Source: Candidatus Woesearchaeota archaeon
Lineage (GTDB): Archaea; Nanobdellota; Nanobdellia; SCGC-AAA011-G17; PNOQ01
DNA length: 64,000 bases
Assembly (NCBI GenBank): GCA_018652625.1
Contig: JABIBT010000021.1
Location: forward strand, 14,502-78,501
Direction: 5' to 3'
Positions within the stretch are counted from its first letter, which is position 1; every line of letters starts with the position of its first letter. Below are positions 5,264 to 60,220 of this stretch, in pieces. The notes under the pieces were generated by a model. It was not told the DNA's origin. It did not search any database and saw nothing but the letters and a program-made list of their open reading frames with translations. Position numbers and translations under genes: made by a program.

Positions 5264-5663
5264 AGGACAAATAGATATGTTTGGTTTGGTAATAATAGTT
5301 ATACTTATAGTTATGATTGGATTATTTTCTTTATTTTTTATTTCTCGAGGACAAATTGATGAAAGAGAAGAATATTATTCCTACAAAGCTAATAATTTTG
5401 CTAATGCGTTATCTAAATATTCTCGTGGGAATTTAAATTTTAAGGAAATGGTTTTGGAGTGTTGCACTGGAAGTAGATGTGAAGATTTGTTAGACTTTGT
5501 TGAAGATAATTTTGCTTATGTTGATGAGCCGGTTAGTTTTGAAATAGAATGTGCTAATTCTGATTATTCTGGTTCTCGAGGGAGCTGCAGTAGTGGAATT
5601 GCCTCAGAGTCCATAATTCTGCAGTCTGGGGACCTAATTCGAGTAAATTTGTGTAGAAAATAG
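5253..5663 (+). CDS. Pilin-like protein with a class III signal peptide.
   Basis: The N-terminus is MKTKG|QIDMFGLVIIVILIVMIGLFSLFFI. It overlaps the upstream gene by 11 nt. The C-terminal part contains several Cys residues. Confidence 0.6.
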   Translation: MKTKGQIDMFGLVIIVILIVMIGLFSLFFISRGQIDEREEYYSYKANNFANALSKYSRGNLNFKEMVLECCTGSRCEDLLDFVEDNFAYVDEPVSFEIECANSDYSGSRGSCSSGIASESIILQSGDLIRVNLCRK

Positions 5664-5665
5664 GC

Positions 5666-5677
5666 TTTTTTGCTTTT
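5666..5677 (+). terminator. Oligo-T terminator after the pilin-like gene set.
   Basis: TTTTTTGCTTTT begins 3 nt after the TAG at 5661-5663. Archaeal RNA polymerase terminates at oligo-T tracts. Confidence 0.45.
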
Positions 5678-5740
5678 AAAGGTCTTAGGGCTTAAAATTT
5701 GGGTGTTTGGAGGCGAAATATATGCTAAAACAGATAAATG

Positions 5741-5748
5741 TTTATAAA
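5741..5748 (+). promoter_or_regulatory. Candidate TATA box (TTTATAAA) of the S-layer gene, which implies a leader of about 110 nt.
   Basis: This octamer also sits 28-33 nt upstream of many start codons in the window. Here it lies 141 nt upstream of ATG 5882. Confidence 0.45.
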
Positions 5749-5858
5749 TGGAGAAATTGCAATTTTATTAATGAAAATAGAAGATTACAGCGTCGTAGTT
5801 TATAGCAATGACTTAGGAGTTGACTAACAACCTCAAAAATGAGGGAATGTAAAAAGAG

Positions 5859-5878
5859 ATTAACATGGAGGTGTTAAT
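5859..5878 (+). promoter_or_regulatory. Perfect 7-bp hairpin that presents the Shine-Dalgarno GGAGG in its loop, 3 nt before the S-layer ATG.
   Basis: ATTAACA (5859-5865) and TGTTAAT (5872-5878) are exact reverse complements. The 6-nt loop is TGGAGG. GGAGGTG spans 5867-5873. Confidence 0.55.
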
Positions 5879-5881
5879 ATT

Positions 5882-7975
5882 ATGAAAAAATTTATTAGAA
5901 GAGTTGCTGCAGTCGGTATGGGTTCAGCTATGTTATTAGGAACATTTGGCGGAGCACTAGCGGCTAACGAGACTCTAGCAGATTTACCTGCACCATTCGT
6001 TGTGAACGAAGCATATGCTGACGTTGCAATGGTTGTTGGTTCCTTAGCTGGTACCGATGATAATGCTGCAAGATCTGCATTAAAGACATATTTCGACGGA
6101 GAAGCAACAGCTGTTGCTGGAGACACATCCTTGAGTACTGATGCCTATAATAGGGAATTCTACTATGAGTCTGAATTCAATGGAAGTACTCAATTTGGAA
6201 CAGAAGTAGACGATGAAAAAGTGGATACTTTGTATGATGGTAAAATTGACTGGGGTGACAAGTCCTATGATGTTAGAGAACTAATCAACTTTACTGGCGG
6301 AGCTAAAATTAGTACTAGTGTTAATTCGACAGGAGTGAAGGAGTTTGCCGGAGATCCATATGTAACTTTTGAATCAGGGTCTGTTAGCTATCTGTACTAC
6401 TTTGATACACTTTTTGAAGAAAATGCTTCCAGTAGTCACAATTTGAGTTCTACTACGCCTTTAGAATTTACTTTTTTAGGTAAGGATGTAAAGATATCAG
6501 ATGTAAGTACTACTGCAGATACCATTTCTTTGAATATGGCTGATGAATTTACTTTCAAAGAAGGCGAAGTACAAACCATAGAGGGAAGTTCTGTTACTGT
6601 AGGAAGTATCTTTGAATCTTCTGTAGAAGTGACTTTAGATGGTGTTACAAAAATTGTTAGTTCCGGAAGTAGCCATGATTTTGGAGACTTAACTGTTAAG
6701 GTCGACACAATTGGATATAATTCGAACAATCCAGATTTAAGTAAAACTATCTTGAATGTTGGAACTAAGATTAGTGATACTGTAAGTGATGGAGAAGTCT
6801 TTGAATTATTTACTGACTATGATCCAGATAACAATGCCCCTTGGGAATGGGAGATTAGAACAGGTAACACTGCTGCAGGACACTGGATTTCTTGGGTTGG
6901 TGTAACTTTGAGATTGGCAGCAGATGATTTAGATGTTGGAGATACAGACTCTAATCCAGATCCATTTGGAGTAGGAGGTTCATTTGTATTTCCAAATAAT
7001 TATGTAGCTATATCTTTCGATGAAACAACAGATACAAGTTATTGTAAGATAACTATTGAAGCATTGGCTGATAAAGACATAAACTCTTCTGCTGGATCTA
7101 GCGCAAACGGAGACAATACAGACTATCTTCATTTTGTTGGAGATGAAACTAATTGTTTTGCAATTGGAGGCGTAGATACTAATGCTATTTATGCTTTGGA
7201 GCGAAACGATACTTCAGTTGCTTGGGATTTGTGGTATGAAGACAGCGAGGGTATTAAGAAGAACTCTACTGAGACTACGTTTAACATAGATTGGGATGAT
7301 ACAATTATGGCAGTATCTTTTATTAATAACACTGCATCAAATCACCACTATGTCAATATCTCGAAAGACACTAACGCAGATTCTAGAGATGAAAGTATCT
7401 TTTTGAATGTGTCAAGTGGAATTCAAGAATTTGGAACAACAGAAGACTTTGATTCAGGTGAAAGAGAGGTTTTCTATTCTTGGACAACTAGGCCTCAAGG
7501 AGTTGGGATAATAGATCTTTCTGGAAGAGATTACCAAGCATTAACAATGTATGGTGTGATTATTGGAGATGACGGATCTGATGTAGAAGATGATTTAGAT
7601 GCAGATAAGGTGGTTATCCATGTGCCAAATAATCGAGCCCAAGCAGTAGTATCTATTGGTGCTGGTGCACAAGTTACTGGTGGAGCAGTTGTTGAACCTG
7701 CATTAGTTAATGATGCAAGTGCAGCAGGATATAACAACTTAATCCTTGTAGGTGGACCTTGTGTAAACGAGTTAACAGCAGATTACTTAGGACTAGATTT
7801 CCCTTCATGTGAAGGTGTTTCTGGAATACTAGAGAACAAGGCGATTGTTCAATTAGTTGAATCTGGTGGAAAAACTGCATTGATTGTAGCTGGATGGGAA
7901 GCTGCTGACACAAAGAGAGCTGCTGACACAGTTGCTGCAGGCGGATTAACAGGTGCAGACATTATCGTAGAGTAA
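5882..7975 (+). CDS. S-layer protein of the Methanococcales/Thermococcales type (S_layer_N / S_layer_C-like ends).
   Basis: There is a Sec signal peptide, MKKFIRRVAAVGMGSAMLLGTFGGALA|ANE. The N-terminal DVAMVVGSLAGTDDNAARSAL and the C-terminal NLILVGGPCVNELTADYL ... TALIVAGWEAADTKRAADTVAAG match my memory of conserved S-layer ends. The protein is acidic and rich in Thr/Ser/Asn, has about a dozen N-x-S/T sequons, and has a strong SD. Confidence 0.7.
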   Translation: MKKFIRRVAAVGMGSAMLLGTFGGALAANETLADLPAPFVVNEAYADVAMVVGSLAGTDDNAARSALKTYFDGEATAVAGDTSLSTDAYNREFYYESEFNGSTQFGTEVDDEKVDTLYDGKIDWGDKSYDVRELINFTGGAKISTSVNSTGVKEFAGDPYVTFESGSVSYLYYFDTLFEENASSSHNLSSTTPLEFTFLGKDVKISDVSTTADTISLNMADEFTFKEGEVQTIEGSSVTVGSIFESSVEVTLDGVTKIVSSGSSHDFGDLTVKVDTIGYNSNNPDLSKTILNVGTKISDTVSDGEVFELFTDYDPDNNAPWEWEIRTGNTAAGHWISWVGVTLRLAADDLDVGDTDSNPDPFGVGGSFVFPNNYVAISFDETTDTSYCKITIEALADKDINSSAGSSANGDNTDYLHFVGDETNCFAIGGVDTNAIYALERNDTSVAWDLWYEDSEGIKKNSTETTFNIDWDDTIMAVSFINNTASNHHYVNISKDTNADSRDESIFLNVSSGIQEFGTTEDFDSGEREVFYSWTTRPQGVGIIDLSGRDYQALTMYGVIIGDDGSDVEDDLDADKVVIHVPNNRAQAVVSIGAGAQVTGGAVVEPALVNDASAAGYNNLILVGGPCVNELTADYLGLDFPSCEGVSGILENKAIVQLVESGGKTALIVAGWEAADTKRAADTVAAGGLTGADIIVE

Positions 7976-8046: not shown

Positions 8047-8520
8047 ATGAAAAAAAACAGAAACAAATTATACATTGGATTATTTATTGTATTTTTGATG
8101 GTATCTAGTACTATTGGATTTTTATATAGTTCTGAGGATTCAAAAAAAGTAAATGGAAATAAATTTACTTTAACAGATAAAGGATGGCAGCTTTATTCCG
8201 GTGGAAATTATTGGTATTTTGATTATTTGCCTAGTGAACTGAATTTTGAATCAGATATGAGAACAATATCAAATTTGGTTTATGTTTCTGTTTTGGATAA
8301 TCAATATTTTTATGAAATAAGTAATAAGTTTGCTTTGTTGGGAGTAGTTGTAGAAAGGGTTAGTTTGGAAGAAATAGATTGTGATACGGAAATTACTACA
8401 TTAGTATTTATGTATGAGAATGACAATAAAATTTATAAAGAAGGTAGTTGTGTCTATTTTGAAGGGCGAGAGGATATGCTCATTGATAAATTATTTTATG
8501 AAATGTTGGGAGTGATTTGA
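8047..8520 (+). CDS. N-terminally anchored hypothetical protein, paralog of the next gene.
   Basis: A single N-terminal TM segment is present (LYIGLFIVFLMVSSTIGFLY). The C-terminal motif ENDNKIYKEGSCVYFEG ... LFYEMLGVI is shared with the downstream ORF. Confidence 0.5.
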   Translation: MKKNRNKLYIGLFIVFLMVSSTIGFLYSSEDSKKVNGNKFTLTDKGWQLYSGGNYWYFDYLPSELNFESDMRTISNLVYVSVLDNQYFYEISNKFALLGVVVERVSLEEIDCDTEITTLVFMYENDNKIYKEGSCVYFEGREDMLIDKLFYEMLGVI

Positions 8521-9178: not shown

Positions 9179-9208
9179 GTTGTCAGCTTGCCATGCACGG
9201 GGAAATAA

Positions 9209-9216
9209 TTTATAAA
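9209..9216 (+). promoter_or_regulatory. TATA box (TTTATAAA) for the LAGLIDADG ORF.
   Basis: It lies 29 nt upstream of ATG 9238. This spacing implies a leaderless or near-leaderless mRNA. Confidence 0.55.
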
Positions 9217-9237
9217 CTACTTCTAATTTTTTATTAG

Positions 9238-9873
9238 ATGGATTTGAATAAACTGGCTTTATTTTTAGGTATGTTAGTTGGAGACGGTTCTATATCAAAC
9301 AGAAAAAATGGTTTTGGGTATCCTACTTATTCAGTTGCTTTTTGGAATACTCGAAGGGAATATGTGGATTTATTCTCAAACCTTAATTCTGATTTATTTG
9401 ATTCTGAGGGCAAGATAAATCCACGACACAGGCCAAATAAGAAAGTACTTTATGAATTTCGTATTTACTCAAAACCTATTTTTGATTATCTTGTTGATGA
9501 TGTTGGAATTCCTTCTGGGAAAAAGGCTGCGATAGTTAAGATCCCAAAGATAATACTTAAATCAAATAATGAGGTTAAGAAATATTTTTTTCTTGGTTTA
9601 TTTTTGACAGATGGTGGATTAAATAAGCGAGGAAATCTCCATTTTCATATGGCCAGTAGGGAGTTATTATCGGGATTGAGTGGTATGATCAAAGATATTT
9701 GGGGATTTGATAAAGAAGTTAAAAATGTTATACAAAAAAATAAATATTTTTCTTATCAGTTAAATTTAAATATGGATGAAAGTAGCGTTGTATTACATGA
9801 CTTATGCCGGGATCGCATAATCTGGTATTGCACTGATTCAGCTGAGTTAGTCTCTCTGAAGTGTAAGCCTTGA
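9238..9873 (+). CDS. Double-motif LAGLIDADG homing-endonuclease-like protein; its 3' end reads into the tRNA-Ser gene.
   Basis: There are two LAGLIDADG motifs, LALFLGMLVGDGSI and YFFLGLFLTDGGL, and both keep the acidic residue. The last 68 nt of the ORF (9806-9873) are tRNA sequence. Confidence 0.7.
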   Translation: MDLNKLALFLGMLVGDGSISNRKNGFGYPTYSVAFWNTRREYVDLFSNLNSDLFDSEGKINPRHRPNKKVLYEFRIYSKPIFDYLVDDVGIPSGKKAAIVKIPKIILKSNNEVKKYFFLGLFLTDGGLNKRGNLHFHMASRELLSGLSGMIKDIWGFDKEVKNVIQKNKYFSYQLNLNMDESSVVLHDLCRDRIIWYCTDSAELVSLKCKP

Positions 9874-9933
9874 AATAATACGCAGGTTAGCCAGGCCCTA
9901 ACGGGCATCTGGGTTCAAATCCCAGTCCCGGCG
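9806..9933 (+). tRNA. tRNA-Ser(UGA) with two BHB introns: 31 nt at position 29/30 (9836-9866) and 14 nt at 37/38 (9875-9888).
   Basis: The ends are identical to the intronless tRNA-Ser at 60140-60220. Removing the two segments gives an 83-nt class II tRNA with anticodon stem CTGGC/GCCAG, loop CTTGAAA and variable arm GCCC-TAAC-GGGC. Both segments lie in bulge-helix-bulge geometry (detailed in the findings). An oligo-T tract follows. Confidence 0.8.
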
Positions 9934-9946
9934 TTTTTAATAAAAC

Positions 9947-60139: not shown

Positions 60140-60220
60140 GCCGGGATCGCATAATCTGGTATTGCACCGGTCTCGAAAACCGGGCCTTCGGGCATCTGGG
60201 TTCAAATCCCAGTCCCGGCG
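60140..60220 (+). tRNA. tRNA-Ser(CGA), intronless, class II.
   Basis: The folded cloverleaf has acceptor GCCGGGA/TCCCGGC, anticodon stem CCGGT/ACCGG, loop CTCGAAA, variable arm GCC-TTCG-GGC, T arm CTGGG-TTCAAAT-CCCAG and discriminator G. TTTT follows. Confidence 0.9.

Follow-up and report, generated by a model that had tools for sequence, protein, structure and literature searches.

The 64,000-nt window analysed here, i.e. the whole stretch of DNA taken from contig JABIBT010000021.1 of Candidatus Woesearchaeota archaeon, contains at 9806–9933 a disrupted gene for tRNA-Ser(UGA). As judged from sequence comparison, this is very probably the only detectable gene of its kind in the source genome, interrupted by two introns that would be removed by the tRNA-splicing endonuclease EndA and located in a cassette which has been exchanged laterally together with the adjoining gene of a LAGLIDADG endonuclease. 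The main interest of the locus lies in the presence of relaxed introns beside a plain alpha4-like EndA and in the co-transfer of these introns with a homing-endonuclease gene.

An original prediction, made from the letters of the DNA alone, had already recognised the gene, its anticodon, both introns and the four splice junctions, and these stand. Its designation of intron 1 as a strict bulge-helix-bulge (BHB) motif and its expectation regarding the type of endonuclease had to be given up.

The source genome, designated G000, is represented by an assembly of 658 kb with 31% G+C which is 87% complete, and the window lies on its contig C32. G001 to G004 denote relatives of the same genus, of which G003 is the closest to G000 and G001 a distant one, and the other G labels further relatives used for comparison. 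The tRNA loci were compared by a DNA search across 40 relatives followed by inspection of single loci, and orthologues of the endonuclease were surveyed in 240 genomes of the order.

The tRNA-Ser(UGA) gene and its spliced product

Removal of 9836–9866 and 9875–9888 in silico yields a sequence of 83 nt that ARAGORN calls as tRNA-Ser(tga) with a full and perfect cloverleaf. The product shows the features of a class II tRNA-Ser, namely a cloverleaf built of a 7-bp acceptor, D and T arms and a perfectly paired 5-bp anticodon stem whose 7-nt loop holds TGA, together with the long variable arm GCCC-TAAC-GGGC; anticodon, stem and variable arm are as had been predicted. At the same syntenic locus, with the same genes up- and downstream, G003 carries an intronless tRNA-Ser(UGA) gene which is identical to the predicted spliced product in 83 of 83 positions and scores 58.1 bits against the Rfam tRNA family RF00005 (threshold 29). 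In addition, the gene shares 28 nt at its 5' end (9806–9833 with 60140–60167) and 32 nt at its 3' end (9902–9933 with 60189–60220) with the tRNA-Ser(CGA) gene of the window; every base-level statement made earlier on this identity, on the length of 128 nt and on the 83-nt product was checked and found to be correct. The remaining tRNA body of the spliced molecule is common to the Ser(CGA) and Ser(GGA) genes. The coordinates of all features are collected in Table 1.

Table 1. Features of the tRNA-Ser(UGA) locus and of the paralogue used for comparison (positions in the window)
Feature	Position	Strand	Remarks
Exchanged cassette	9179–9895	+	~0.7 kb, ~90% identical to G001; intergenic stretch, endonuclease gene, exon 1, intron 1, micro-exon, intron 2
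Predicted LAGLIDADG homing-endonuclease ORF	9238–9873	+	211 aa, free-standing, double-motif; PF14528 1.2e-10
TATA-like box TTTAAATA	9765–9772	+	34–41 nt 5' of the tRNA, inside the endonuclease coding sequence (..YQLNLN..); putative promoter element
tRNA-Ser(UGA) gene	9806–9933	+	128 nt, three exons and two introns, without encoded CCA; spliced form identical to the G003 orthologue (83/83)
Exon 1	9806–9835	+	tRNA positions 1–29; first 28 nt identical to tRNA-Ser(CGA), 60140–60167
Intron 1	9836–9866	+	31 nt, site 29/30; HBh' motif without outer helix; covariation
Micro-exon GCCTTGAA	9867–9874	+	8 nt, tRNA positions 30–37; anticodon TGA at 9871–9873
Intron 2	9875–9888	+	14 nt, canonical site 37/38; hBH/loop motif, 5' site within a 10-nt hairpin loop
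Exon 3	9889–9933	+	tRNA positions 38–73; 3' strand of anticodon stem, variable arm GCCC-TAAC-GGGC, T arm, acceptor, discriminator G
T5 run	9934–9938	+	immediately 3' of the discriminator base; probable archaeal terminator
tRNA-Ser(CGA)	60140–60220	+	intronless paralogue, Rfam 56.1 bits; comparison gene of the original prediction

In its unspliced form, 9806–9933 is not called by ARAGORN in default mode and has no Rfam match even at E≤1, while ARAGORN -i wrongly reports a tRNA-Arg(acg) with a 39-nt intron; the expectation that standard finders would miss or mis-assign the gene was thus borne out. The original prediction had allowed for an intact second tRNA-Ser(UGA) gene elsewhere, and none was found in the G000 assembly by BLAST, by ARAGORN in both modes or by a scan for T-arm and acceptor sequences. 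BLAST and ARAGORN together detect four tRNA-Ser loci in the assembly, i.e. UGA, GGA, CGA and a 3' fragment of the GCU type. UCA accounts for 24% of the serine codons in the long open reading frames (ORFs) of G000. As far as these searches can detect, 9806–9933 is the only tRNA-Ser(UGA) gene of the genome.

The GCU-type fragment (contig C4:1-40) comprises only the 3' end of a tRNA-Ser truncated at the contig end, and the remnant of its variable arm corresponds to the Ser(GCU) type of G004. A 'tRNA-Ser(tga)' reported by ARAGORN -i at contig C3:2525-2635 was rejected, as its variable loop of 5 nt makes it a class I molecule, namely a tRNA-Ile(UAU) whose site 37/38 carries a 36-nt intron. A whole-genome scan for GC islands was too noisy for use as a search for hidden tRNAs. 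It revealed an initiator tRNA-Met on the minus strand of contig C27 (~8381–8490), with a GGG/CCC anticodon stem, a CAT anticodon and a D-loop intron of ~27 nt, which ARAGORN misses in both modes.

As such, a spliced tRNA-Ser(UGA) is nothing unusual in archaea whose tRNA genes are disrupted, and taken alone the gene is a routine gain in annotation, in that it accounts for an essential tRNA which was lacking and which standard finders label wrongly.

Motifs and junctions of the two introns

Intron 1 shows two 3-nt bulges (TGA, 9834–9836, and AAG, 9865–9867) around a central 4-bp helix H (GCAC, 9830–9833, with GTGT, 9861–9864) as well as an inner helix h' formed by TTCAG (9837–9841) and CTGAA (9856–9860). 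An outer helix h is absent, ATT (9827–9829) lying unpaired opposite CCT (9868–9870). In the nomenclature of PMC5829648 and PMC4090602, these pairings make intron 1 a relaxed HBh' form and not the strict hBHBh' motif, which comprises both h and h'. The site, the junctions, helix H, the bulges and the inner helix had all been placed correctly by the original prediction, and only the word 'strict' has to be dropped.

Intron 2 possesses h and lacks h'. Its helix H consists of CTTG (9869–9872) and CAGG (9883–9886), accompanied by AAA and by the 3' bulge TTA (9887–9889), and its loop reads TAATACG, in agreement with the relaxed bulge-helix-loop that had been proposed; from its pairings it is a relaxed hBH/loop form. 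Here the anticodon stem forms the outer helix, and it is not complete until intron 1 has been removed.

The boundaries of intron 1 are fixed exactly by the intronless G003 orthologue. Since A9875 and A9889 are the same base, the boundary of intron 2 is defined by this comparison to within 1 nt, and the BHB geometry places it at site 37/38. The rule that every cut falls after the second bulge nucleotide, already part of the original prediction, agrees with G003 at these junctions and is confirmed by the tRNA-Ser(CGA) gene of G001 (L035, G001:C1:23570-23830), which has introns at 30/31 and 37/38 and in which the motif is shifted as a whole by 1 nt. The corresponding CGA gene of G000 is intronless. 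A single intron of 53 nt (9836–9888) was also considered and rejected, as it would remove the anticodon.

In counts made on hand-cut alignments of fixed register, which lean towards the model because the register was taken from it, helices H and h' of intron 1 are 98.6% paired among 16 distinct homologues, with double changes in 6 of the 9 pairs. None of 500 shuffles reached the observed value and slid controls gave 21–47%. Helices h and H of intron 2, counted in the same way, are 98.8% paired across 9 homologues, again with compensatory changes. Owing to the slid controls and the intronless orthologue, the conclusion drawn from covariation is safe despite the register bias.

The 29/30 intron is shared by many genera, in which it interrupts Ser(UGA), Ser(GGA) and Ser(GCU) genes. 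Moreover, 29/30 and 30/31 are among the known non-canonical intron sites listed in PMC4090602, so that the gene, regarded as a tRNA, adds a member to a known class. On sequence comparison, the intron content of the serine isoacceptors varies freely inside one genus.

The splicing enzymes

An endonuclease of the alpha2beta2 or epsilon2 type had been inferred in the original prediction. The genome of G000 was found to hold a single EndA-family gene, a plain 176-aa ORF at 5461–5988 on the minus strand of contig C36 with matches to PF01974 (1.6e-31) and PF02778 (4.5e-10), covering the N and C domains. It is insert-free, collinear with the alpha4 EndA of M. jannaschii and hence alpha4-like, and the same holds for relatives including closed genomes. 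With the alpha protein and the NCBIfam beta-subunit model NF007085 as queries, no second EndA was found at E≤10 in G000, G002, G004, G025 (1 contig) or G030 (2 contigs), both queries retrieving only the alpha gene. Among 41 relatives, 35 have exactly one PF01974 match at E≤1; two have none and four have extra ones, which in three cases are at chance level only.

A single gene coding for ~170–180 aa, with N and C domains and with Tyr, His and Lys present, is what characterises the alpha4 type. A separate beta-subunit gene, the mark of an (alpha-beta)2 enzyme, was not found in these searches, and with 176 aa the protein aligns to a single unit of 4fz2, without its insert, whereas the three-unit epsilon2 enzyme has ~390 aa. 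Its FRVY, DH and TRK motifs align with the Tyr, His and Lys positions which we take to be the catalytic triad of the M. jannaschii enzyme. Being encoded by one gene only and collinear with 1a79, EndA is probably a homotetramer.

In the alignment with the M. jannaschii enzyme no gap is seen that would correspond to the L1/CSL, L2/ASL or L3 inserts. In detail, N. equitans alpha has 6 and ARMAN-2 has 5 extra residues at RGVKPGE^DH, the 176-aa EndA none; the lysine-rich L3 insert in the C domain of N. equitans and ARMAN-2 is missing, as is the ARMAN-2 loop. Likewise missing is the extended N-terminal part of A. pernix alpha, in which the crenarchaeal loop is situated. All nine EndAs sampled from related Woesearchaeota and Nanoarchaeota read RG[VI]KPG[ED]DHAKW and are insert-free.

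It has to be considered whether splicing is nevertheless carried out by an alpha2beta2 or epsilon2 enzyme with a second subunit that is too divergent or lies in the unassembled part of the genome, since relaxed and non-canonical introns have been linked to broad-specificity enzymes (PMC3239211, PMC5829648) and since a PDB search finds the G000 EndA equally close to the alpha subunit of N. equitans and to the alpha4 EndA of M. jannaschii. We consider this quite unlikely: the G000 alpha sequence retrieves even the beta subunit of N. equitans from the PDB (6e-11), yet no second EndA-like frame appears in the five genomes searched at E≤10, and both the single PF01974 match in most relatives and the length of the protein speak against it.

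RtcB is present in G000. An RtcB query of 480 aa matched G004 and G005 and gave no match in G001, G002 and G003, although long queries can miss matches.

Folding and order of splicing

In the minimum free energy (MFE) structure of the full precursor, the intron-1 hairpin is present with its 5' bulge. Once intron 1 is taken out, the MFE structure of the 97-nt intermediate is exactly the cloverleaf plus the intron-2 motif, and prior removal of intron 2 is predicted to result in a misfold. Single-intron precursors fold inconsistently. A pathway may be envisaged in which the single alpha4-like EndA would cut each 3-nt bulge behind its second nucleotide and RtcB would ligate the exons. Intron 1 would leave first, allowing the anticodon stem to form, and the stem so formed would then present intron 2 in its motif. 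Cutting and ligation in sequence seems to be needed because after four simultaneous cuts the 8-nt micro-exon would be held by two base pairs.

The precursor MFE structure also pairs the D-loop and D-stem at 9818–9829 (UAAUCUGGUAU) with the 3' end of intron 2 at 9878–9889 (AUACGCAGGUUA), forming a helix that is stacked upon H of intron 1. Of nine two-intron Ser precursors, which come from several genera, eight show this pairing between the D-loop (nucleotides 16–23) and the 3' end of intron 2, with an AUAYCAG motif. The possibility that this helix serves as the outer helix of intron 1 was rejected: it leaves a 12-nt loop in place of a 3-nt bulge, and the invariant D-loop prevents a covariation test.

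The adjoining LAGLIDADG gene

Directly 5' of the tRNA, and missing from the original prediction, lies the ORF of a double-motif LAGLIDADG protein that is, from its sequence, a predicted homing endonuclease. It matches PF14528 in two stretches and contains the LAGLIDADG motifs LALFLGMLVGDGS and YFFLGLFLTDGG; the closest solved sequence is the rather distant intein endonuclease domain of V-ATPase subunit A (PDB 7qsu/7qss, E 1e-8). The ORF extends 68 nt into the tRNA gene, where the anticodon TGA serves as its stop codon.

Orthologues with 47–86% identity occur in only 8 of the 240 genomes of the order, always directly 5' of tRNA-Ser(UGA). Six of these eight loci contain intron 1. The two others, G004 and G012, are intronless and carry substitutions near 29/30, at tRNA positions 27/43 (C27T and G43A in G004) or 10/25 (G10A and C25T in G012). 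None of eight further intronless alleles has the endonuclease gene, and all of them read TTGCAC. For the endonuclease and intron 1, a two-sided Fisher test gives p=0.08, and a 'disrupted target' class defined post hoc gives p=0.007, figures which are overstated because the genomes are related. At the sequence level, an association between the endonuclease and a disrupted target is no more than suggestive.

In detail, both introns are found at the Ser(UGA) locus of G001, G010, G039 and G071, and intron 1 alone in G013, G007, G020 and G008. G021 has three, the third one being in the T-loop. No intron is present in the eight genomes without an adjacent endonuclease gene and in G004 and G012. The locus of G021 (L050, G021:C9:1340-1600), with its introns at 29/30, 37/38 and in the T-loop, has no neighbouring endonuclease gene.

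The proximity to tRNA genes is shared by other members of the family. G000 itself has two weak paralogues, one beside tRNA-Trp and one beside tRNA-Ile(UAU) (C3:2895-3254, minus strand). Among ~29 free-standing LAGLIDADG paralogues in the family examined, ~20 have a tRNA gene at a distance of no more than 81 nt, and introns are found in ~16 of these ~20 tRNAs, several of which have more than one intron and are missed by ARAGORN, versus ~6 of 40 tRNA genes in G000. We found no published report of free-standing LAGLIDADG genes beside archaeal tRNA introns.

Some further observations concern these genes. In relatives, tRNA genes with several introns or with a D-loop intron, unreported by ARAGORN, lie beside the paralogues at L060, L062, L064, L065, L068 and L083; they are initiator Met, Leu, Tyr and Phe-like genes. 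The endonuclease ORF of G000 has no stop codon before the tRNA (9805/9806), and cleavage of a read-through transcript by RNase P at the tRNA 5' end would leave an mRNA without a stop. In the intronless G004 the endonuclease, read in another frame, also stops at the anticodon TGA, and in G012 the frame continues through the tRNA. The orthologue of G008 (L011, G008:C16:62657-63217) contains two in-frame TAA stops and is a decaying copy; the tRNA beside it retains intron 1. The TATA-like box, which lies inside the endonuclease gene, is kept at 7 of the 8 endonuclease-bearing loci, G010 having TTTAAAAA.

Lateral exchange of the cassette

Window-by-window identity and a three-way alignment of G000, G001 and G003 reveal a mosaic. 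The upstream flank of G000 is 83–92% identical to G003 and 57–72% to G001, and the downstream flank is 71–90% identical to G003 and unrelated to G001. In contrast, the block between them (9179–~9895) is absent from G003 and is 79–98% identical to G001 per 100 nt. Its right junction falls between 9889 and 9899, inside the tRNA between intron 2 and the variable loop, which reads TAAC in G000 and G003 and GAAA in G001. The genomic background corresponds to the flanks: EndA of G000 is 93% identical to that of G003, 81% to G004 and 76% to G001, and in a 12-kb DNA stretch, which was used as a second distance marker in place of RtcB, G000 is 84–90% identical to G003 and G001 barely matches.

A G001-like block inside G003-like flanks argues that the introns have moved laterally together with the endonuclease gene. 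Between G000 and G001 the endonuclease is 86% identical at the protein level, the synonymous divergence (dS) is 0.37 and the ratio of non-synonymous to synonymous divergence (dN/dS) is 0.19, from which it follows that the gene is under purifying selection and that its divergence is much younger than the split of the species. The cassette was exchanged between distant congeners as one block by gene conversion, and the sequence pattern is that expected of homing with co-conversion.

A cassette inherited vertically and evolving slowly, with a precise loss of both introns and of the endonuclease gene from G003, is an improbable alternative. Purifying selection does act on the endonuclease, and precise loss of the introns is conceivable through conversion from paralogous Ser genes sharing the exon sequences. 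However, the identity of ~90% includes the non-coding intergenic sequence and dS is only 0.37, with adjacent genes at 57–72% and a genome background that is barely alignable, and selection on the protein cannot keep synonymous and intergenic sites so close. Moreover, the endonuclease of G004, which belongs to the same genus, is just 59% identical.

Points against a functional, transferred gene

Several points weigh against the reading of the locus as an expressed, laterally acquired and uniquely encoded tRNA-Ser(UGA) gene. With an assembly that is complete to 87%, a further gene for tRNA-Ser(UGA) is possible. As to the direction of the transfer, G000 may have gained the cassette or G003 may have lost it. 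Enzymes of the alpha4 type have been reported to depend on the strict hBHBh' motif (PMC3239211, PMC5829648), which is found in neither of the two introns. In addition, the MFE structure of the full precursor does not contain both motifs together, the fold with the two motifs being 7.9 kcal/mol less stable, and transcription, the four cuts and the order of splicing are read from sequence and predicted folding.

That the gene is a decaying pseudogene with two insertions and UCA is read by another tRNA, as its invisibility to tRNA finders and the incomplete genome might suggest, is very improbable indeed, given exons identical to a functional-looking orthologue, inserts that coincide exactly with motifs of the BHB type, in which genera differ by compensatory changes, an arrangement kept in at least 8 genomes, no other UGA isoacceptor found in the assembly and a codon that is a major one for serine.

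Relation to known systems

A two-intron tRNA-Ser(UGA) gene inside a transferred cassette may be compared first with the multi-intron tRNAs described from Thermoproteales, N. equitans and ARMAN-2 (PMC4090602, PMC4033280). They have in common EndA-type introns with 3-nt bulges and a 4-bp helix, the known sites 29/30 and 30/31 (PMC4090602) paired with a canonical intron, and relaxed HBh' or hBH motifs. The present gene differs in that its host belongs to the Woesearchaeota (DPANN) and has a single loop-less alpha4-like EndA instead of an alpha2beta2 or epsilon2 enzyme, in that the micro-exon measures 8 nt, and in that a free-standing endonuclease gene accompanies the allele with the introns.

The EndA in turn resembles the alpha4 enzyme of M. 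jannaschii (1a79) in length (176 vs 179 aa), in a near-gapless alignment over residues 15–176 (E 1.2e-35), in the positions of Tyr, His and Lys and in being encoded by one gene per genome, whereas the reported substrates of the latter are strict hBHBh' motifs (PMC3239211) and those considered here are relaxed. Kaneta et al. (2018) described alpha4-type EndAs from DPANN with many disrupted tRNAs and tied these to an L3 insert (PMC5829648), from which the G000 enzyme and the nine sampled relatives differ by being insert-free. The gene constitutes a clean natural test of whether, as the rule has it, an alpha2beta2, epsilon2 or insert-bearing EndA is required for relaxed or non-canonical introns: the candidate substrates beside a plain alpha4-like EndA comprise an HBh' motif, an hBH motif, a micro-exon of 8 nt and, elsewhere in the genome, a D-loop intron.

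Archaeal LAGLIDADG enzymes of rRNA BHB introns and inteins share with the predicted endonuclease the two motifs with acidic residues (..LVGDGS.. and ..FLTDGG..) and the PF14528 domain. The gene described here, by contrast, is free-standing, lies outside any intron or intein and overlaps the 5' part of the tRNA.

How archaeal tRNA introns are gained was called unknown in a review of 2014 (PMC4090602). As a tentative explanation, which we regard as possible and rather less than probable, the locus may represent collaborative homing of archaeal BHB introns combined with the processing of relaxed HBh'/hBH motifs by a loop-less alpha4-type EndA. The LAGLIDADG enzyme would cut intronless tRNA-Ser(UGA) genes around 29/30, its own allele being protected by intron 1 or by the substitutions at 25 or 27 seen in G004 and G012, and repair from the donor would copy the endonuclease gene together with the introns. 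If this is true, it would provide a concrete mechanism for the gain and spread of non-canonical tRNA introns, and a loop-less alpha4-type EndA must be able to process HBh'/hBH motifs, contrary to the rule that ties relaxed motifs to inserts in the enzyme. The three-genome mosaic is in itself a snapshot of tRNA introns moving between lineages with a homing-endonuclease gene.

The precedent for such collaboration is the free-standing F-CphI gene beside the intron-containing psbA of cyanophage S-PM2 (Zeng et al. 2009), as far as it is described in PMC6083498. According to that description, a phage protein gene is there interrupted by a self-splicing group I intron and the endonuclease is a member of the Endo VII family, unlike the protein-spliced BHB introns, the cellular tRNA gene and the LAGLIDADG enzyme considered here, for which cleavage and shielding are predictions and of which two endonuclease-bearing alleles (G004 and G012) are intronless. 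Within the limits of the same account, the two systems agree in that a free-standing endonuclease gene adjoins an intron-containing gene, in that relatives have intronless alleles without the endonuclease at the same locus, and in that endonuclease and introns are transferred together.

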